A stretch of DNA of 32,579 nt from Promethearchaeota archaeon (GTDB lineage: Archaea > Asgardarchaeota > Lokiarchaeia > Sigyniarchaeales > SOKP01), in NCBI GenBank assembly GCA_016839765.1, contig JAEOTP010000031.1:1-32579 (forward strand), written 5' to 3'. This document shows, piece after piece, positions 19,240 through 32,579 of the stretch. How positions within the stretch are numbered: the stretch's first letter is position 1; each line of letters opens with the position of its first letter. Under the pieces are notes generated by a model. That model was not told the origin of the DNA and did no database searches. It saw only the letters and a program-made list of their open reading frames with translations. The position numbers and the translations under genes were made by a program.

Positions 19240-20238
19240 ATGAATCTAAAAGGATTAAACATTTTGGTAACTGGTGGAGCGGGTTTTATTGGGTCGCATA
19301 TTGTTGAAAGTTTAATTAATAATGGGGCAAAAGTAAGAATTATTGATAATTTTAGTACTGGTTCTTTAGAGAATCTTAAAGGAATTATTGAAAAGGTAGA
19401 TATTATAGAAGGAGATATCCTTAACTATAATTTATTATTAAAGGCGTGTAAAGATATAGATGTTATTTCACATCAAGCAGCACAATTGGAAATTATAACC
19501 TGTATGCAAGATCCAATTTTTGATTTAAAAAGCAATACTGAAGCGAGTCTCAATGTTTTTAATGCGGCTGTAAAGTCAAATGTCAAAAAAATAATATATG
19601 CATCATCCGCTTGTATTTATGGCCAAGCAGAATATATTCCTCAGGATGAAGAGCATCCAAATAAACCAAATTGGCCATATGGCGTAAGTAAACTTGCCGT
19701 AGAAAAATATTCTAAAATATATACGGATTACTATAAAATACCGATGATTGGGCTAAGATATGGTATAACTTATGGACCAAGAGAATGGTATGGAAGAGTG
19801 TTAACAATATTTTTAAAGAGAGCTTTAGAGAAAAAATTACCTGTGGTTTGGGGAGGTGAACAATTGAGAGATTTTATTTATGTATCTGATGCTGTTGATC
19901 TTCATAATCTTTGTATTAAAAATAATGATTTAGTCAATGAAATATTTAATGTATCTACTGGAATAGGTACCAGTATTAAAGATTTAGCAGAAATTGTCAT
20001 AAAGACTCTTAATTTAGAAGGGAGTCCCATTTTTGAGGATTTGGATGAAGGAAACATTTCCAAGGAAGTAGAAGGAAGACCAAGATTACCATTAGAATTA
20101 AAAAGAATGGTTTTAGATAATAAAAAAGCAAAAAAGATACTTAAATGGGAGCCAAAAATAAAATTAAAAGAAGGAATCATTAAGGAATTTGAGTGGTTGA
20201 AGAATAATATAACGAAATGGAAAAATATTAGTATATAG
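19240..20238 (+). CDS. NAD-dependent NDP-sugar epimerase/dehydratase (extended SDR)
   Basis: LVTGGAGFIGSH, DNFSTG, HQAA, YASSA-YG, catalytic YGVSK, YGP, RDFIYV. Confidence 0.93.
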   Translation: MNLKGLNILVTGGAGFIGSHIVESLINNGAKVRIIDNFSTGSLENLKGIIEKVDIIEGDILNYNLLLKACKDIDVISHQAAQLEIITCMQDPIFDLKSNTEASLNVFNAAVKSNVKKIIYASSACIYGQAEYIPQDEEHPNKPNWPYGVSKLAVEKYSKIYTDYYKIPMIGLRYGITYGPREWYGRVLTIFLKRALEKKLPVVWGGEQLRDFIYVSDAVDLHNLCIKNNDLVNEIFNVSTGIGTSIKDLAEIVIKTLNLEGSPIFEDLDEGNISKEVEGRPRLPLELKRMVLDNKKAKKILKWEPKIKLKEGIIKEFEWLKNNITKWKNISI

Positions 20239-20241
20239 GGG

Positions 20242-21000
20242 TTGAATATGAATAATAATAAGAAAGTAATAGACGAAATTGCTGAGTGGTATGATTCTCC
20301 GGAAGGATTTACAAAGAATTGGTATAATCTTTATAAAAAATTAGTTTTTTTTAGATACAACGCTATAAAACCATTTCTTGAAGGTAATATTATTCTTGAA
20401 GTAGGGATCGCAAATGGAGAAATGACTCAATATCTCTTTCAACATTTTGAAAAAGTAATTGGATTAGAAGGAAGTAGTCATTTTATTGAAGAAATAAAAA
20501 AAAGGTTTCCAGAATATTATAAATCAAATCGATTAGAACTGATACATTCATTATTAGAAGATTATTCTTCTGATATTAAATATGATATTATACTCTTTAG
20601 CCATATTTTAGAACATTTAGATAAACCTGGTGAAATTTTGTTGAAATTAAAAAAATGGATTAAAAAAGATGGCAAAATAATAATTTTAGTACCTAATGCT
20701 AATTCATTACATAGACAGGTTGGGGTCAAAATGGGTTTATTAAATAGGATCGATGATTTAAATGACCTAGACAAAAAATTAGGTCATAAACGAGTATATA
20801 CTTGGGATACGTTAAAAGAGACTTTAATTGACTCAGGATTAAAGATTGTAGAACTAGGAGGTTATTTCCTCAAACCACTCGCAAATTATCAAATTGAGAA
20901 ATGGTTTACAGAGAAAATGATTGATGCTTTTTTTGAATTAGGTAAAAAATATCAAGAAATGGGTGTGGAGATATATGCAATTTGCATTTGCGAAAAATAA
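20242..21000 (+). CDS. Class I SAM-dependent methyltransferase
   Basis: ILEVGIANG, GLEGS, YDII-SHILEH, IILVPNA, GHKRVY. TTG start, or ATG at 20248. Confidence 0.88.
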   Translation: MNMNNNKKVIDEIAEWYDSPEGFTKNWYNLYKKLVFFRYNAIKPFLEGNIILEVGIANGEMTQYLFQHFEKVIGLEGSSHFIEEIKKRFPEYYKSNRLELIHSLLEDYSSDIKYDIILFSHILEHLDKPGEILLKLKKWIKKDGKIIILVPNANSLHRQVGVKMGLLNRIDDLNDLDKKLGHKRVYTWDTLKETLIDSGLKIVELGGYFLKPLANYQIEKWFTEKMIDAFFELGKKYQEMGVEIYAICICEK

Positions 21001-21199
21001 ATTAAATTCTGATTTGTTGATTTTGTGAGTAAATTTAATAATGAGATTTCCAGAGATATAGAAATATTGAAAATGTATTATTAATTTTTTTTTTTAGATT
21101 TAGTAGTAATAAATTTAAAAAAAATTTACTTAAAATTAATGATTTTTTAGAATTTTATAAAATTAAATAATCCATATAATCAAATAAGATGAATATGAA

Positions 21200-22090
21200 A
21201 TGAAGATTGGTATAGTTGGTCAAGGTTATTGGGGGAAGATTATCTTAAGAAATTTAGAGAATATGAATTATAAAGAGATTACATTATGTGATATTGCTTC
21301 TTTAAATAAAAAACATAATCAAAATTATGAGATATTTAATAATTATAAGGATTTGAATTGTGATTGTGTTTTTATTACAACGCCAACCAATACTCATTTT
21401 GAAATTAGTAAATACTTTTTAGAAAAAAAAGTTAATGTATTCTGCGAAAAACCTCTCACAACTTCCATAACCGAAGCAGAGGCTTTATACGATATAGCAT
21501 TAAAAAACAACACAATATTATTTACGGATTGGATTTTCACATATAATTCTCACATTGAAACAATAAAAAGAGACTATGAGAGCGGTAAATTAGGCAAAAT
21601 TAGAAGTATTTTTATGAATAGATTAAATTTGGGGCCAGAGAGATTTGACGTAAACGCTCGTTGGGATTTAGCCTCTCATGATATTTCGATCATCCAGTAT
21701 CTTTTTTCGGAAGAACCTGTAAACATAAGATGGACTGATTATAAAAGGAATAAAAATTCAAAGCAAGATGATAGCACTTTAGGTTTTATAGAATACAACG
21801 AATTTTTAGCCTGTATCAATGCTAGTTGGCATTACAGGAAAAAGGTAAGAGAATGTATTTTTGAATTTGATAATTATTTTATCGTTTGGGATGACTATAA
21901 AAGGTTTCTACAATATGAAGATTCAACTAACGTGAGTTTTCCAATATATTCAGGTAATTTAAGTTATCCTTGTAGTTCATATCAAGAACCACTAAAAAAT
22001 GCAATTGAAGTATTTTTTTCATTTAACACTGAATATTTAATTAAACAAAAAAAATTAACACTAGATACATTGAAAATATTGGAGGCGTAG
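21200..22090 (+). CDS. Gfo/Idh/MocA family oxidoreductase (WlbA/WbpB-like NDP-sugar dehydrogenase)
   Basis: KIGIVGQGYWG, ITTPTNTH, FCEKP, RLNLG, WDLASHD. Confidence 0.88.
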   Translation: MKIGIVGQGYWGKIILRNLENMNYKEITLCDIASLNKKHNQNYEIFNNYKDLNCDCVFITTPTNTHFEISKYFLEKKVNVFCEKPLTTSITEAEALYDIALKNNTILFTDWIFTYNSHIETIKRDYESGKLGKIRSIFMNRLNLGPERFDVNARWDLASHDISIIQYLFSEEPVNIRWTDYKRNKNSKQDDSTLGFIEYNEFLACINASWHYRKKVRECIFEFDNYFIVWDDYKRFLQYEDSTNVSFPIYSGNLSYPCSSYQEPLKNAIEVFFSFNTEYLIKQKKLTLDTLKILEA

Positions 22091-22094
22091 TTTT

Positions 22095-23216
22095 ATGGAT
22101 ATAATGTTTAATAATTTATCAAAACAGTGGGATATGATAAAGGAGGATGTTACTCCAAGATTAGAAGCGCTATTTAAAAAGTCTGATTTCATTGGTGGAA
22201 AAGCTATTGGGGAATTTGAAGAAAATTTTGCTCAATATTGCGGAATAAAATACGCTGTAGGCGTTTCAAATGGAACTGATGCGTTAAAACTATCATTAGC
22301 TGCATTTGAAGTTGAATCTCCATGTGGAGTAATTATTCCAGCTAACACTTTTATAGCTACAGCTTTACCGGTTACATATATTAGCGATATAACTTATGAT
22401 TTAATATTAGTTGATTGTGATGAATATTATCAAATCGATGTAGAGCTTTTAGAATTATACTTAAAGAAAAATAGAAACAAATGGAAATCTTGTATAATAA
22501 TTCCAGTTCATCTATATGGCCATCCATCCAATATGAAACGAATCCTTGAAATTGCAGAGGAATTTAATTGCTTTATTTTAGAAGATTCTTCACAAGCTCA
22601 TGGAGCAATGGTTTTAAATAAGAAAGTTGGAGGAATTGGGGATATTTCAGCATTTTCCTTGTATCCCGGTAAAAATCTGGGGGCTGCAGGAGATGCCGGA
22701 GTTATTACTACAAATAACGAGAAATTATATAAAAAGGTTAAATCTTTAAGAAATTATGGATCATCTGAAAAATATCATTATGACTTTAAAGGTTGGAATA
22801 ATAGGTTAGACACTATTCAAGCTATAATAGTAGACGAAAAATTAAAGCATTTAGACAAATGGAACGATATGAGAATTGAGAAAGCAAAAAAATATGATGA
22901 TTTATTTAAAGATAATAACGAAATAATAACACCAAAAACAGCGCCATATATTAATAAACAAGTTTATCATATTTATGCTATTAGAGTGGAAGAAAGAGAT
23001 AAACTTCAAACATATTTAACTAAACACAATATTCCTACTATTATTCATTATCCAATTCCTATTGAAAAAACAAAACCATTTAAGCATCTTGAACATTTTG
23101 ACAATAAAAAGGCAAAACAATATGCGAATGAGTTGCTTAGTTTACCTATGCATCCATTTTTAACAGAGGAGGAAATCGAGTATATTGTAGAAAGGATTAA
23201 AACTTTTACCAAATAA
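22095..23216 (+). CDS. DegT/DnrJ/EryC1/StrS PLP-dependent sugar aminotransferase (FdtB/WbpE-like)
   Basis: VSNGTDAL, PANTFIAT, IPVHLYG, EDSSQAHG, SLYPGKNLGAAGDAG (PLP lysine), RNYG, NNRLD, IHYP, LSLPM. Confidence 0.94.
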   Translation: MDIMFNNLSKQWDMIKEDVTPRLEALFKKSDFIGGKAIGEFEENFAQYCGIKYAVGVSNGTDALKLSLAAFEVESPCGVIIPANTFIATALPVTYISDITYDLILVDCDEYYQIDVELLELYLKKNRNKWKSCIIIPVHLYGHPSNMKRILEIAEEFNCFILEDSSQAHGAMVLNKKVGGIGDISAFSLYPGKNLGAAGDAGVITTNNEKLYKKVKSLRNYGSSEKYHYDFKGWNNRLDTIQAIIVDEKLKHLDKWNDMRIEKAKKYDDLFKDNNEIITPKTAPYINKQVYHIYAIRVEERDKLQTYLTKHNIPTIIHYPIPIEKTKPFKHLEHFDNKKAKQYANELLSLPMHPFLTEEEIEYIVERIKTFTK

Positions 23217-23363
23217 GTTCCAAGTATAAAAAGTTTTATTAACATATTTCTTAGAAGAATTGAAAAGATAATTAAATTTTTTACTAAAGCTTTAAATTAA
23301 TAATTCTTTAGATTTAATAAAATGTGTTAAGAATAGTACTACTTTAAGTAAGTGAAATAAAAA

Positions 23364-24410
23364 GTGAATAATGAACCTTCTAAAGAGAATCAGTCTTTTT
23401 TAGAAAAAATTTTGAATTATAAAGGAATAATTTTAATTTTTATCGGAATATTAATTAGAATCTTCATGCTTCTTTATTATTATTACACTCACGCAATAGA
23501 TCCATTAAAAAGTTGGGGAGATGTAGATATCAATTTCAGTGGTAGTTATCATTATCCTCCGCTCACTATGTATCTATTAGACTTTTTTAGAGTAGTTTCA
23601 TTTGGAATAGTTGAAATTTTTGCCTTTTGGTCTTTTCTTTTAGAAATATTAAGCGTTTTTTTATTCTACTTTGTCTTAAAAAGCTTTAATATATCTAACA
23701 AAAAATATGTTTATGGATTATTCTTAATAAACCCCTTTTTCTTTTTAAATAATGTATTTAGTTTAGAGAATTGTGGTTACCACATAACTGATTCATTCTT
23801 TTTTATTTTTTTATTTTTAACTTTAATATTTTACCCAAAAAAAGAAGATTGGAGCAAATATTTATTTTATGTATTTCTAGCGTTATCTGCAGTCGCAAAA
23901 ATTTATACTTTGCCAATTATGGGATTTTTCTTTCTTAAGTTTTTAATAGAAAAAGATTGGAATGAGATGAAAAAATTTTTAATTATCACAATCCCCATCG
24001 TTGTTGTTTTCTTAGCTATACCTTTCTTTTATATAGAAAATTATCTTAATCTTTATTTATTATGGAATGAGGCTGGTGAGGATATATTGCCATTATATAT
24101 TAGGCTAATCATCGTAGCAATCATGGGGCTGTTATATATTTTCTTTAGACTTAAAAAAGCTGGAATTATCGAGATGACTTTCTTTTCAATATTAATTATA
24201 GCTGTTCTTTTGTTCTTTAGTAAGCCCTTTATTCGGTATTTTCAACCTTTATTAATTTATGGAATTTTAACTCCTTATGTGTTTTTCTCATTTACGCTTA
24301 ATCTGGGATTTATCAAAAGGAAAATTACTTTTGATAATAATCTTTTAGTATTTTACTCCTCGTTCATTTTAGTCGGTATAGCCTATTTAATAATAATTTT
24401 TCTATTATAA
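23364..24410 (+). CDS. Polytopic GT-C fold glycosyltransferase, PIG-M/GT87-like
   Basis: About 9-10 TM segments. After TM1 (ILIRIFMLLY) come DVD and YHYPPL; later FLINP, DS, AKIY and FSK-RYF, in the same order as the PIG-M/GT87 motifs. GTG start. Confidence 0.65.
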   Translation: MNNEPSKENQSFLEKILNYKGIILIFIGILIRIFMLLYYYYTHAIDPLKSWGDVDINFSGSYHYPPLTMYLLDFFRVVSFGIVEIFAFWSFLLEILSVFLFYFVLKSFNISNKKYVYGLFLINPFFFLNNVFSLENCGYHITDSFFFIFLFLTLIFYPKKEDWSKYLFYVFLALSAVAKIYTLPIMGFFFLKFLIEKDWNEMKKFLIITIPIVVVFLAIPFFYIENYLNLYLLWNEAGEDILPLYIRLIIVAIMGLLYIFFRLKKAGIIEMTFFSILIIAVLLFFSKPFIRYFQPLLIYGILTPYVFFSFTLNLGFIKRKITFDNNLLVFYSSFILVGIAYLIIIFLL

Positions 24411-27794: not shown

Positions 27795-29030
27795 TTAAAA
27801 AAAGCTTCTAAAAACCTCTTCTGCCTTAATTTTTCTATGATCTCGTCTTTTTTGACTTGAGGTTTTATTTAATAAAGCTTCATTACAAATTTTTTTACCA
27901 ATATTTACTTTTGGATTATTTGCCCAGTTAACATCTAATAGAAGGCAAAGATTATACACAGTACTCTGAATAAAAGCAATTAATTGTCCAATTTTTAAAG
28001 CATTTGGAGTTTCTAATGAAATTTTCGCTGATGGAACACCTTGCTCTATTAAAGCCTGAAAAGTTGCATCTGCTTGATAGCCTACAATTGATTGTGCTGT
28101 TTGTCCATGGATATAATCAATACTAGATTCTAATGTTAAATCTAATAATTCGTTTTCTACAGTCCAAATAATAGGAATTACAATACCCTTTGTTCCACCA
28201 AGAAGATATTCTAATACTGAGTGTTGGCATAAAGGTGCCGATTGATATGCTCCCATTAAACCTCGTTCATTTTTCCCACTACTTTCAGAGATTTCTTGTA
28301 CAAAAAGACCTATAGATCCTTCAAGATTTATAGAGTATGGCATAGAGAATAAAATTCTATATCCCTTATTATATAGTTTGAATAGAAAGGCGGAAAACTC
28401 TGTGCTAGGATTTAAATCATATTTCATGAATAAATCGTAACTTTTTTCTAAGCCTTTTAAAAAGCTATTAATGTCAATACCGGCTAGATATGCAGGGACG
28501 ATAGCAACATTAGATATAGATGCCGCAAATCTTCCTGCTAAATCAGGAACATCAAGAATAGGACAATTAATCTTTTTTAAAATCTTATTCATAGTACCCT
28601 TAGATGATAAACCTAGGAAATTATATCCTTTTTTTATAAATGTCCCAATAGTGGAATTAATATCTAAAGTTTCACCTCCTCGGGATATTGGAATAACTAT
28701 TGAATTTTTTGGTGTTGTACTTTCCAAACATAAATTTAACTCTACTGCTCGAGAGCTAGTTATAGGATATATTTTTTTTTTGGATAAATGCTTTAATGCC
28801 AATAATGTTTGTATAGATCCTCCTGTACCTAAAATGATAACATTTTGAATATTGTCGATATTAAGAGAATCAAGTACTGATTTAATCTTATCCAAGTTAA
28901 TAAAAGTTTTTGTATCTACGAAAAAAGGAGAATCCCAATTCTCTTTTCTTTCAGCAATACTATTGATTATTTCCTCTATTTGTGCATTATTAAGTTTTGG
29001 ATAATACTCTAATTCAATATCTTTACCCAT
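27795..29030 (-). CDS. pgi: Divergent glucose-6-phosphate isomerase-like (double SIS) protein
   Basis: LGTGGS, ISRGGET, AGRFA, QEISESSGK, CQHS and NNPKVNIGK correspond to the PGI motifs GIGGS, SKSGxT, GGRYS, QLxxESxGK, DQHS and DQPGVExGK. Confidence 0.72.
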   Translation of the reverse strand: MGKDIELEYYPKLNNAQIEEIINSIAERKENWDSPFFVDTKTFINLDKIKSVLDSLNIDNIQNVIILGTGGSIQTLLALKHLSKKKIYPITSSRAVELNLCLESTTPKNSIVIPISRGGETLDINSTIGTFIKKGYNFLGLSSKGTMNKILKKINCPILDVPDLAGRFAASISNVAIVPAYLAGIDINSFLKGLEKSYDLFMKYDLNPSTEFSAFLFKLYNKGYRILFSMPYSINLEGSIGLFVQEISESSGKNERGLMGAYQSAPLCQHSVLEYLLGGTKGIVIPIIWTVENELLDLTLESSIDYIHGQTAQSIVGYQADATFQALIEQGVPSAKISLETPNALKIGQLIAFIQSTVYNLCLLLDVNWANNPKVNIGKKICNEALLNKTSSQKRRDHRKIKAEEVFRSFF

Positions 29031-29243: not shown

Positions 29244-30497
29244 ATGGCAAAAGCTAGCGAAATAAAAAATGAGGATAGTATTGAGATTGTTGAAGCTTAT
29301 TATTGCACAGAATGTAAAAGAAATCATACTAAAGGAAAGATTTATAAAGAACATCTTCAATTTGCAAAAATTGAAAACGATGGAGAAGAAATTACTGAAG
29401 ATGATGAATTAGAATTGAATAAAGATGATTACAGTGAACAAGAAGAAATAGATTTGGCAGAAGAAATAGAAGATACAGATTTAGAAGAAGATATAGAATT
29501 TGAGGAAGATGACGATTTTGATATTGGAGAAAAAATTCTTAATGATGATGTTCAAAATTGTGTTGAAGCTGTAAAAAAGCTCCCGGGAGTGGGAGAAGCT
29601 ACACTTAAAAAGCTAATTAAAGCAGGTTTTAATAGTCTTGAATCTATAGCATATACACCTCCTAGTATTATCCAAGAAGAATCTGGATTAGGAGATAAGA
29701 CTACAGTGAGATTAATCAAAGCATCAATGGAAAAATTGAATATTGGATTTAAGTCTGCTGAAGATGTTTGGGAACATAGAAAAAATATTGCTCGAATTTC
29801 AACAGGGAGTCAAGAACTTGACGATTTGTTAGGAGGCGGGCTAGAAACAGGGTGTGTAACAGAATTTTTTGGAGAATTTAGAACTGGGAAAACTCAAATT
29901 ATGCATCAATTATGTGTAAATGTTCAACTATCCAGAGAAAAAGGAGGCCTTGAAGGTAATGCTTTATATATTGATACAGAAGGCACTTTTAGGCCGGAAA
30001 GAATAATTCAAATGTCTGAGGCTCTTGACCTTGATCATAAGAAAGTATTGAAAAATATTGTCTTTGGTCGAGCTTATAATTCAGATCATCAAATTCTTTT
30101 GATTAAAGAAGCTGCAAATCTGATTAAAGAAAGGAATATCAAAGTAATAGTAGTTGATTCTTTAATTGGGCATTTTAGAAGTGAATATATAGGGAGAGGT
30201 ACCCTAGCAAACCGTCAACAATTAATTAATTCACATTTACATGATCTATTAAGATTAGCAGATATTCATCCAGAACTGGGAATAGTTGTTACAAATCAAG
30301 TTCAATCAAAACCAGATGTCTTCTATGGAAATCCCTTACAGGCAACAGGTGGCAATGTGGTGGCACATGGCTCCACTATTAGAATTTATTTAAGGAAGGG
30401 AAAAGGAGAGCAAAGAGTTGCCAAGATGGTTGATGCTCCTCATCTTCCTGAGGGAGAAGCTGTATTTAGTATTACAGAAAATGGTATATCAGATTAA
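29244..30497 (+). CDS. radA: DNA repair and recombination protein RadA (Rad51/DMC1-like) with about 100-aa N-terminal extension
   Basis: HhH LPGVG; polymerisation motif FKSA; STGS-LD-LLGGG; Walker [10 protein letters not shown]; [12 protein letters not shown]; Walker B VIVVDS; GRG-L-RQ; TNQV. Confidence 0.96.
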
Positions 30498-30587: not shown

Positions 30588-32579
30588 TTATTTCAATTTT
30601 TCATATTCATTTGCTTTGTTAGTTAATCTTTTTACCTCTTTTGTCATATCCGTAACTCCTAATTTAAATATCTCAGATGCAATTTTAGAGGCTTGTTTGT
30701 ATTTCTGAGCCGCTTCGAGATAATTTTTCTTTTTCACTGCAAGTTTAGCTTCATTTTCAAATTGTTTTTTCTTAAGTGTTAGATCTTCTATCTTGGTTTT
30801 ACGAGTTAATTCTTCTAACTGCATAAATTCTTTAGATAACTCCCAGTTTGAAGCGATCAATGCAGCCTCTTGGAAGATTTCAATGGATTTTAGATAATTT
30901 TTCTTACTTTTTGCCTTTTTAGCTCGATTAAATAACTCCTTTATCCCGTTTTTAGCTTCTTTCTTATTGGCTATTTCAACGGTTCCAATTTTTGATTTAA
31001 TAGGAGCAGAAACTATTTTATGGCGCTCAGTAATACTAGAAAGATAAGCTTCTCTTTCAACAGGACCCACTTGTGCCAAATCGTTTACTAACTTTTGTTT
31101 TTCTTCAGATGAGAGCGTAGTTAGTTGTGAAACCTTTTGATTAATTAGGTTTATCTCTTGTTGTGAAATTGGTTGTGCTTCAAGTGCGGAAATTTCAATA
31201 GGAATTAACATCTTCTTATCCCTTAATTCTTTAATTCCCATAAAAATTTCAGCAGTATCTTTATTCGTTCTTTCTGAAGCCTCTTTTAATAATGTGGCTA
31301 TAAAAAAGAATTGCCTATCAGCTTCTTCGCAACAAGAATGAGCTATTTTTAATACCTCTTTCGAATGGGGATTCTTGAGCTCCTTAATACTCGAAAAATC
31401 ATATGATATTTGATGTGGTAAAATTATAGATGTACTTAATAGATCGTCAACTATTTGACCAGAATTTCTAAAGTGAGCCAATTGACCCCTCCAATTAGGT
31501 AAAACATCTTTATATGTCTTTTCAAATACATTAATAAATTCCTTTAAGTTTCTTCGAAGGATTAATGAGGCTTTTTTAGTTAGGACTAATGCAATTCTGA
31601 TATATTCACCATCAGCCAAAAGCAGCATTTTATCTCCATATGAAATTTCATTTAAAGCTTCTTGAGCAACCATTTCTCTACCAAATGAAGAAACAGCCGT
31701 TAAAAATCCACCTATCAATTCTGGGTCAATCTGTTCTGATCCATATGATTTAAAGTATACACAAGTTCCAGTCTCTTTGTATAATACTAAAATGTGTTCT
31801 AAATTGATTGCATCATCAAAAATTGTTTTAACTTCATTTAGAATTCGAGCTTTCTCTCTCTTTTTTGGAGCAATAACGCCTCGATGAATAGCTACAGCTG
31901 CAACAATTCCAATTACTACAATTGCGGCTATTATTATATAGGGTAGTAATTCTTTCAAACTTAGACCAGAAGGCGGTATTATATTAATATCTGAAATTTC
32001 ACGAGAAAATTCTTGATGATTATAGGCACTACTTAATTGAATTGTTAAATTCAATGTACTAGTATCACTATAGGTTGGAATTGTAAATTCTACTTCTCCA
32101 GTGCTATTGGTGGAATAGGGGCCTAAAATTGTGCCTGCTGCGCCATTATAGTATGGAGTTATTGTTATACTTGAACCATTAATTGGTACCCAATCAGAAC
32201 CATTGAAATATTCTGCCTTGATAACAATTGTGAATGGAAGTCCTGCATTTACACTATCGGGCACTACTGCTGTTAAATTAGCTTGATATCTGTCTATTAC
32301 CGTTAGATTAAACATAAAATAAACTTCTTCATAATTCAGTTTGTTAATAGTAATATTTAATTCGTAATTTCCTATTGTTAATGCTGGATTTGAGGTGGTA
32401 ATAGATCCTCTATGATTTTGGGATATGATCTGAAATGAGTTGGCAAGTGTACCATTATCTCCTGTATTAATATTTCTATAGTAGACCGTATAAATATCTG
32501 CCAAAGTTGATACTAATTGATTATTATTCTCCAAATCGGTTATATTGAACTCAACAGTGATATCACTTCCTTCAAAAAT
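30588..32579 (-). CDS. Large single-pass membrane glycoprotein with cytoplasmic longin-like domain and C-terminal helical (MIT/TPR-like) repeats; 5' truncated
   Basis: The frame stays open to the window end (IFEGSDITVEFNITD precedes the called TTG). Beta-rich region with NxS/T sequons, TM LLPYIIIAAIVVIGIVAAVAI, basic KKREKAR, and longin-like ILVLYKETGTCVY...IDPELIGGFLTAVSSF. Confidence 0.8.
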   Translation of the reverse strand: MFEGSDITVEFNITDLENNNQLVSTLADIYTVYYRNINTGDNGTLANSFQIISQNHRGSITTSNPALTIGNYELNITINKLNYEEVYFMFNLTVIDRYQANLTAVVPDSVNAGLPFTIVIKAEYFNGSDWVPINGSSITITPYYNGAAGTILGPYSTNSTGEVEFTIPTYSDTSTLNLTIQLSSAYNHQEFSREISDINIIPPSGLSLKELLPYIIIAAIVVIGIVAAVAIHRGVIAPKKREKARILNEVKTIFDDAINLEHILVLYKETGTCVYFKSYGSEQIDPELIGGFLTAVSSFGREMVAQEALNEISYGDKMLLLADGEYIRIALVLTKKASLILRRNLKEFINVFEKTYKDVLPNWRGQLAHFRNSGQIVDDLLSTSIILPHQISYDFSSIKELKNPHSKEVLKIAHSCCEEADRQFFFIATLLKEASERTNKDTAEIFMGIKELRDKKMLIPIEISALEAQPISQQEINLINQKVSQLTTLSSEEKQKLVNDLAQVGPVEREAYLSSITERHKIVSAPIKSKIGTVEIANKKEAKNGIKELFNRAKKAKSKKNYLKSIEIFQEAALIASNWELSKEFMQLEELTRKTKIEDLTLKKKQFENEAKLAVKKKNYLEAAQKYKQASKIASEIFKLGVTDMTKEVKRLTNKANEYEKLK

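Follow-up and report, generated by a model that had tools for sequence, protein, structure and literature searches.

A predicted type I surface glycoprotein of Lokiarchaeia that joins a variable lectin-like tip to a cytoplasmic longin domain

Gene organization and the full-length protein

The window analyzed here, a stretch of 32,579 nucleotides, is the entire contig C3 (JAEOTP010000031.1) of the 3.3-Mb genome of a Promethearchaeota archaeon (Lokiarchaeia; assembly GCA_016839765.1). At its end lies a reading frame of 663 amino acids (aa), 30588-32579 (-), which runs open into the contig end and lacks its 5′ part; it represents the 3′ part of a gene for a predicted type I membrane glycoprotein of approximately 1560 aa. 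Structure prediction and comparison suggest that outside the cell this protein consists of a signal or anchor segment and a lectin-like jelly-roll on a long N-glycosylated β stalk, followed by one transmembrane (TM) helix. By the same means, a longin domain and a winged helix are predicted inside the cell, together with a helical bundle containing two three-helix units that is found in the Loki order only.

The 648-aa open reading frame (ORF) called in the initial annotation has no true start. Its TTG codon at 32534 was rejected as a start site, being a contig-end artefact internal to the longer gene. The full gene was sought upstream of the window, and a 656-aa 5′ portion was located on contig C41 (L041:5119-7086, +), from which it is evident that the called ORF missed about 900 aa of ectodomain. 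Apart from the C41 frame, nothing in the genome matches the N-terminal part of the nearest homologues. This frame is preceded by P-type ATPase, roadblock-Rab and ATP-grasp genes, the same as those found before the intact gene in L043, where that gene is followed by radA, as in the window. On the basis of this unique N-terminal match and the synteny with L043, the two pieces were considered one gene, and about 240 aa falling in the unassembled gap between them give the length of approximately 1560 aa; in alignments the pieces were joined across the gap by X only. The convergent neighbour radA (29244-30497, +; Pfam Rad51, E 2.5e-93) is conserved at the equal position in L043, L045 and L046 and served only as a synteny marker. 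Most homologues are 1500-1900 aa long, and the close ones come from Promethearchaeota (Lokiarchaeia).

Membrane topology and glycosylation

The membrane-proximal ectodomain (31965-32579, -) is rich in β strands, probably arranged as Ig-like sandwiches, and its Pfam MG4 match is weak (E 9e-5, under the cut-off). A single TM helix (31887-31949, -; aa 196-216 of the called ORF; KD hydropathy 2.9) is followed by a basic stop-transfer sequence (PKKREKAR) and a juxtamembrane helix (31806-31886, -; residues 2-30 of the AlphaFold2 (AF2) model) that leads directly to the longin domain. The sequon count of the initial annotation (eight N-x-S/T sites within aa 1-165, one more upstream and none past the TM helix, i.e. 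over 431 aa) was reproduced, as was its type I orientation deduced from the single TM helix and the basic residues behind it.

Taken by itself, the sequon asymmetry in the window is modest: nine sequons were found outside the TM helix against 4.7 expected (p=0.027) and none inside against 2.4 expected (p=0.077). Across the family, sequon density is 4.4 per 100 aa outside and 0.47 inside, and the full ectodomain of P0003 contains 47 sequons against 22 expected, a number reached in 0 of 3000 shuffles. In 214 of 217 homologues a TM helix directly precedes the longin, and 99% of homologues show positive-inside charge. Type I topology is therefore well supported, with family-wide TM position and charge in agreement. 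The genome encodes an STT3/AglB oligosaccharyltransferase, and the ectodomain is presumably N-glycosylated. No internal repeats were detected by BLAST in two full ectodomains.

The longin domain

The AF2 model of the cytoplasmic tail (69 sequences, mean pLDDT 82.6) places a longin domain at 31425-31805 (-), with the ββαβββαα order of that fold, a five-stranded sheet and two C-terminal helices; the elements are E31-38, E43-49, H57-69, E80-85, E88-94, E98-104, H110-126 and H144-152. Helix α1 (ELIGGFLTAVSSF) carries two of the three invariant positions (G, A); in longin/roadblock dimers this helix is the GTPase-binding face. The VIA structure comparison aligned the domain with the Loki longin 8yqg, solved as a dimer (Z 11.0, root-mean-square deviation (rmsd) 3.2, 129 residues aligned), and with Sec22b, AP sigma, Fuzzy and synbindin (Z 10.7-11.6). 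Longin folds were recovered at Z 10-11.6 over about 120 residues, whereas roadblock chains align over about 105. The longin pattern that had been read from the sequence at aa ~244-366 is thereby borne out, and at the level of predicted structure the domain behind the TM helix is confirmed as a longin fold.

No longin subfamily stands out by structure score. A Foldseek search with the tail returned nothing under E 1e-3, although its top ranks were mostly longins; GATOR1 chains were matched only weakly in this search (8fw5_C, E 0.018, TM-score 0.19). No direct Pfam or PDB sequence match to the curated longin families was obtained, and Sybindin was matched, weakly, in 2 of 64 family members (E 0.03). 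The longin profile recovers proteins of the genome with weak Longin and Fuz_longin_1 matches, as well as longin-GTPase fusions. A recurring GSH-S_ATP match (E ~1e-3, 39 aa) was dismissed as chance, since the structure is that of a longin. The architecture is not that of a longin R-SNARE: the TM helix follows a sequon-rich ectodomain and precedes the longin, and the C-terminus is soluble.

The probable winged helix and the C-terminal three-helix units

The segment after the longin (31200-31415, -) is probably a winged helix. Its H-E-H-H-E secondary structure in the AF2 tail model fits the order H1-β1-H2-H3-wing with a short wing, and its hidden Markov model (HMM) matches the N-terminal segment of a tandem winged helix-turn-helix (wHTH) protein of the same genome (E 6.9e-5; hhalign 44%). 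Pfam contained no match to this segment, and the ESM Atlas held nothing usable for the winged helix alone. The winged helix proposed earlier at aa ~390-446 is supported by the secondary structure and the weak HMM match.

A winged helix behind a TM segment could be taken to mark a membrane-tethered regulator, whose tail is cleaved after sensing and whose winged helix then acts on DNA. The tandem wHTH protein, which is the profile's only match outside the longin-containing family, has ArsR-like domains, and soluble longin-winged-helix proteins exist, both of which would suit such a regulator. The putative recognition helix region of the present winged helix (TAEIFMGIKEL), however, is hydrophobic and acidic, not basic, the winged helices of ESCRT-II (ESCRT, endosomal sorting complex required for transport) and PCI proteins are protein-interaction modules (PMC11188069), and none of the listed loci showed a protease gene. 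We regard regulation by proteolysis as very improbable.

Beyond the winged helix, a small three-helix segment with a conserved P.EREAY motif (31026-31163, -; called aa ~458-503), absent from the initial annotation, occurs in the long-tail subfamily only; there was no VPS28 Pfam match among those listed. It is followed by three-helix unit 1 (30789-30965, -), which is TPR/MIT-like and matches the TPR protein 4a1s (Z 10.7, rmsd 1.8, 67 residues aligned), and by the MIT-like unit 2 (30591-30788, -), with the conserved pattern ASEIFKLG..MTKEVKRL. The two units are homologous to each other (hhalign 94%), and helix 3 of unit 1 continues into helix 1 of unit 2.

Unit 2 has the three-helix bundle form of a MIT domain (~70 aa); in the VIA comparison it superposes on the MIT domain 2w2u (Z 10.5, rmsd 1.3, 69 of 74 residues) and also on 4a5x and 2jq9, while the tandem-MIT protein calpain-7 (8uc6) spans both units. 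TPR proteins and designed (de novo) bundles nevertheless score equally well. With Pfam MIT (PF04212) the unit reached 11.3 bits (E 0.39), i.e. below the 30-bit gathering score, and the best family member E 0.0054. Alignment by hhalign with 30 Asgard Vps4 MIT domains gave 67% (32 columns) and 49%, in the first hairpin (helix 1-2) only; reversed controls remained below 2%. A canonical TPR array was rejected, given that the units lie about 60 aa apart, that alignment with CTPR needs a 24-aa gap or several gaps, and that TPR_2 stays under its cut-off. A generic coiled coil was likewise rejected, since the three-helix bundles are predicted with confidence (pLDDT 84-96). The units are best described as MIT-like three-helix bundles, equally compatible with a TPR-like nature. 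What holds of the earlier proposal of two related MIT/TPR-like units is their homology and bundle form.

Distribution of the family and module shuffling

Of 151 Asgard genomes, 139 gave a match to the tail query, among them 72 of the 73 of high quality. This survey answers the question of conservation raised in the initial annotation: the TM-longin-winged-helix core is matched in those 139 genomes, and the MIT-like tail was found in the Loki order alone. Outside that order the match covers the longin and winged helix only and typically ends frames of 700-2000 aa; the inspected non-Loki loci encode a signal segment or an open start, a sequon-rich ectodomain and one TM helix before the longin. 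Matches to the full 434-aa tail were limited to the Loki order, as a rule one per genome, closed genomes included. Most Asgard members lack the three-helix tail and terminate with the winged helix or with an acidic stretch. In the non-Loki members L025, L026, L029 and L030, a long acidic linker and a short conserved helix (FIxDVExLL-like) replace the three-helix tail. For the longin, the winged helix and the ectodomain, no match above cut-off was obtained in sequence searches of Pfam, NCBIfam and the PDB, and the ESM Atlas returned only unnamed Promethearchaeota clusters.

At least 10 further family members are encoded in this genome; among them are three in tandem, a fusion with 11 TM helices and soluble forms rich in Cys. 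At least six of its other genes encode ectodomain-TM-longin paralogues, and three of them are the tandem genes of L033 (G000:C83:9649-19488). These encode proteins of ~760 aa, two of them very similar, with a signal, sequon-rich ectodomain, TM helix, longin and winged helix. In L038:1832-4114 (-) the longin stands behind an 11-TM protein, while L034:1436-2815 (+) and L036 encode soluble proteins composed of a Cys-rich N-terminus, longin and winged helix, to which L034 adds a MIT-like tail (Pfam MIT, E 0.0027). The longin proteins of L038, L034 and L036 are candidate heterodimer partners. The 885-aa product of L078:99-2753 (G000:C95) combines a longin at its N-terminus with a P-loop segment and, at the C-terminus, a carbon-nitrogen hydrolase domain.

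The pair of three-helix units is separable from the rest of the tail: P0049 has it three times over, and the adjoining gene joins it directly to a TM helix. At L045:7312-18641 the gene is divided between two overlapping frames, and the tip lies in one of 888 aa. The three-helix pair is present in three copies at this locus, and the gene that follows encodes a partial ectodomain-TM-three-helix pair without a longin.

Possible coupling to ESCRT

The initial annotation proposed a receptor or cargo adaptor linked to GTPase signalling and/or ESCRT. For the ESCRT link we found nothing beyond the fold: the Pfam MIT cut-off is not reached, similarity to Vps4 MIT domains stops at the first hairpin, TPR and designed bundles tie, and most Asgard members have no such unit. 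ESCRT-II, two ESCRT-III proteins and Vps4 are encoded elsewhere in the genome.

The same modules could make the protein a self-sorting cargo or coat adaptor, with the longin serving assembly and sorting in the manner of AP sigma/mu or SNARE longins and the MIT-like units recruiting ESCRT-III; an adhesin would then be concentrated on buds, vesicles or protrusion necks, and GTPase signalling would be unnecessary. The longin finds some of its best matches in AP sigma and Sec22b (Z 11.5-11.6), the fit of unit 2 to MIT domains has an rmsd of 1.3-1.6, and the two units in tandem match calpain-7 and LIP5. The genome has the ESCRT components named above, a neighbouring paralogue joins the three-helix tail straight to a TM helix with no longin, and surface assemblies of Candidatus Lokiarchaeum ossiferum are found at high-curvature sites (PMC9834061). 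The restriction of the tail to a minority of Asgard members, the Pfam and Vps4 results and the equal scores of TPR and de novo bundles speak against this adaptor, which we consider rather unlikely.

Lectin-like tip and allele replacement

The N-terminal 411 residues, encoded on C41 and thus outside the window, were modelled from 102 sequences with a pLDDT of 91.9. The model is a beta-sandwich jelly-roll inserted in a long β stalk, and its best match is the Cwp84 lectin-like domain (Z 15.0, rmsd 2.6, 146 residues aligned), followed by phage tail/baseplate and tail-tip domains (Z 14.3 and 12.8) and CBM6/35/36 jelly-rolls (Z ~9). By its predicted structure the tip is a lectin-like jelly-roll and a putative carbohydrate binder.

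The tip is the least conserved region of the protein. In homologues whose tails are 93-97% identical it shares only 23-27% identity, and approximately 800 bp of tip DNA are unalignable between flanks with 88% and 76% identity. Among 102 full-length proteins, 73 pairs (related to one another, and hence not independent events) have tails at least 90% identical; their median tip identity is 27%, with 54 pairs below 35% and 10 above 70%. Clustering at 60% identity gave 70 clusters of tips versus 13 of tails, and near-identical tips were found on distant tails (87% tip, 64% tail identity). Two Ca. L. ossiferum records are 98-100% identical over residues 2001-2566, the last 566 aa, but only 15-50% identical over residues 1-1800. 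Sequence comparison thus shows that the tip, and sometimes the entire ectodomain, is exchanged among close relatives with nearly invariant tails, and the two-peaked distribution of tip identity suggests replacement by recombination rather than gradual drift. The tip had no match in the phage collection searched, and its GC content is not distinctive. Directly downstream of the gene in L057:6775-9219 and G144:C10:911047-912747 there is a second tip/stalk copy, in both cases cut by a contig end; exchanged alleles might come from such copies.

The exchange of whole alleles is a typical mark of virus-driven selection. It would also be expected if the protein were a structural glycoprotein of the non-crystalline Loki coat, with a tip that varies as a virus receptor and a tail that acts as a constitutive anchor, oligomerizing or tying the coat to the cytoskeleton, with no signal passed. 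Loki cells do bear an irregular protein coat, viruses attach to the Loki cell surface (10.64898/2026.08.12.739948), and the further ectodomain-TM-longin paralogues, at least six with three in tandem, would suit a coat. A structural anchor, on the other hand, has no obvious need for a longin whose dimer/GTPase helix is conserved phylum-wide, and the presence of the longin-winged-helix unit in soluble proteins too, and after an 11-TM protein, points to a reusable signalling output. The structural role is, in our judgement, unlikely.

Possible coupling to small GTPases

A roadblock-Rab fusion, L041:2976-4058 (-) on contig C41 (G000), lies one gene upstream of the surface-protein gene in divergent orientation, and about 10 genomes, belonging to six genera, have a roadblock-Rab gene within ~1-7 kb of it. 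Co-folding of two longins with the roadblock-Rab protein scored 0.33, and the best of three controls scored 0.00 (runs with the roadblock-Rab 0.33/0.39/0.07; contact agreement at least 82%; partner pLDDT at least 73). The mark for such scores was reached by 58 of 80 solved pairs and 2 of 110 mismatched pairs; scores at the mark but not exceeding 0.60 were obtained for only 7 of the 80 solved pairs and for both mismatches. The score may also reflect memory of like solved complexes. The co-fold is weak support for a longin-GTPase pairing and does not specify whether the roadblock or the GTPase part forms the interface.

Of the receptor/adaptor link drawn initially, the receptor part is favoured by the lectin-like tip, allele replacement and the invariant tail, while the neighbouring roadblock-Rab gene and the co-fold speak weakly for GTPase coupling.

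Comparison with known systems

Longin/roadblock dimers are established GTPase platforms, and Asgard ones dimerize (PMC10933270). The domain resembles the longins of Mon1-Ccz1, Fuzzy-Inturned/CPLANE, TRAPPC1/C4, NPRL2/3 and the Loki roadblock-longin 8yqg in fold (Z 9-11.5, rmsd ~3, ~120 residues) and in the conserved α1. Those are soluble complex subunits, whereas here the longin is fused behind a TM helix and an ectodomain of more than 1000 aa; identity to them is 5-18%, a PDB sequence search gave no match, and guanine nucleotide exchange factor (GEF) or GTPase-activating protein (GAP) activity is at most putative. Sec22b, Ykt6, VAMP7 and the AP/COPI sigma, mu and zeta chains are membrane-associated and give the best longin scores (Z 10-11.6), but in the present protein no SNARE motif was seen, the TM helix is N-terminal to the longin after a large ectodomain, and there is no adaptin trunk.

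The MIT proteins Vps4, MITD1, calpain-7 and LIP5/Vta1 have superposing bundles (Z 9.2-10.5), in tandem in calpain-7 and LIP5; the units described here differ in falling under the Pfam cut-off, in the run of unit 1 helix 3 into unit 2 helix 1 and in having no ATPase. The Cwp84 lectin-like domain, phage tail/baseplate domains and CBM6/35/36 share the fold of the tip, which is here inserted in the conserved β stalk of a membrane protein and is at most 14% identical to the top matches.

The same domain toolkit is shuffled in the Lokiarchaeia in Asgard multidomain ESCRT-related proteins (Vps28-C, longin, TPR, Ig-like, HTH/PCI; Makarova et al. 2024, PMC11188069) and in NPRL2-like longin fusions (Liu et al., 10.1101/2020.10.19.343400). 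Their text deals with Vps28-C, steadiness-box, adaptin-appendage and two-component fusions; a type I glycoprotein bearing a lectin-like tip is not among them. The “badge” of Nerearchaeum marumarumayae (LOKIASV2_13140; 10.1101/2025.07.22.663070) is likewise a very large Loki surface protein with large beta-sheet domains and Promethearchaeaceae homologues. Its description mentions no longin tail, and the two were compared by description only, which leaves room for kinship.

Plexins are single-pass receptors whose cytoplasmic part regulates small GTPases, with a RasGAP fold, a Sema ectodomain and no allele swapping; the resemblance is a functional analogy, not homology.

Published accounts cover Asgard longins, roadblocks and fusions with GTPase, two-component, Vps28-C, TPR, Ig-like and HTH domains, as well as a rich, unexplained Loki surface coat. 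In the literature searched, coverage of which is incomplete, we met with no account of a longin tail on a type I glycoprotein, in keeping with the earlier impression that this is not a characterized family. The L. ossiferum member NEF87_001574 is annotated as hypothetical, and its accession is uncited in the papers and supplements searched. The architecture is real and apparently undescribed, built from known parts.

Other features of the window

The product of radA has an N-terminal extension of ~100 aa, in which a Cys/His motif (CxxCxxxH...H) is followed by a long acidic stretch; the Cys/His motif is also present in L043, L045 and L046. A conserved 411-aa protein with a weak phosphoglucose isomerase match (E 0.13) is encoded at 27795-29030 (-), syntenic with radA in relatives.

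A sugar-modification cluster at 19240-24410 (+) encodes an epimerase, a methyltransferase, a Gfo/Idh/MocA oxidoreductase, a DegT aminotransferase and a 348-aa multi-pass membrane protein without a Pfam match. DNA similarity of this cluster to the close relative L043 ends at 21200, and L043 has a hexapeptide-repeat protein instead of the methyltransferase. The cluster is a variable glycan locus ~7-10 kb from the variable surface protein.

Proposed function and significance

The protein may be a receptor for adhesion or contact at the cell surface, one that offers small GTPases a platform anchored in the membrane, a reading which we favour with about as much doubt as confidence. It is suggested by the joining of a variable lectin-like part outside the cell to an invariant longin inside. 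From the architecture, folds, variability and distribution described above, we infer the functional steps as follows. The tip would bind glycans or proteins on partner cells, kin or particles, with allele replacement shifting its specificity or evading viruses, and its binding would cluster the receptors. The membrane-adjacent longins could then pair through the conserved α1 helix, with each other or with a soluble longin/roadblock partner, to form a dimeric platform of the type on which longin/roadblock proteins dock small GTPases. Such a platform may localize or regulate a GTPase at the contact site, possibly the neighbouring roadblock-Rab, while the winged helix and the three-helix units would be accessory peptide-binding scaffolds, for which ESCRT-III tails are one candidate ligand.

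Several observations weigh against this receptor. The ligand, partner and activity assigned to it are putative. Many longins are not GTPase regulators, and the GEF longins are equalled in score by AP sigma/mu and Sec22/VAMP7. Virus escape alone could account for the variable tip, and a jelly-roll fold by itself is no proof of sugar binding. The roadblock-Rab gene is divergently transcribed and lies inside a generally conserved syntenic block; it is missing from loci L045 and L046 and was not found at E<1e-60 in several genomes that carry the surface-protein gene (G049, G129, G147, G132, G135 and G141).

Longins and small GTPases number in the dozens in Asgard genomes, but the cultured cells lack endomembranes, which leaves the targets of regulation an open question (PMC10933270). 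L. ossiferum crawls and adheres with dynamic protrusions (PMC13716822); the passages covered name no adhesion receptor. In the family described here, a recognition-type ectodomain that undergoes allele replacement is joined to a longin at the plasma membrane, and the presence of the family in cultured L. ossiferum makes the link from cell contact to eukaryote-like GTPase machinery directly testable. In a broader and more tentative view, which we think possible though doubtful, the family would be a phylum-wide set of polymorphic single-pass receptors, whose exchangeable lectin-like tips recognize kin, syntrophic partners or prey and lead to local small-GTPase regulation via the fused longin, and in the Loki order also to ESCRT-III recruitment. 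If true, such a receptor would be a prokaryotic precursor of contact-triggered membrane remodelling; as it stands, the protein is a testable contact-receptor candidate in the closest archaeal relatives of eukaryotes.

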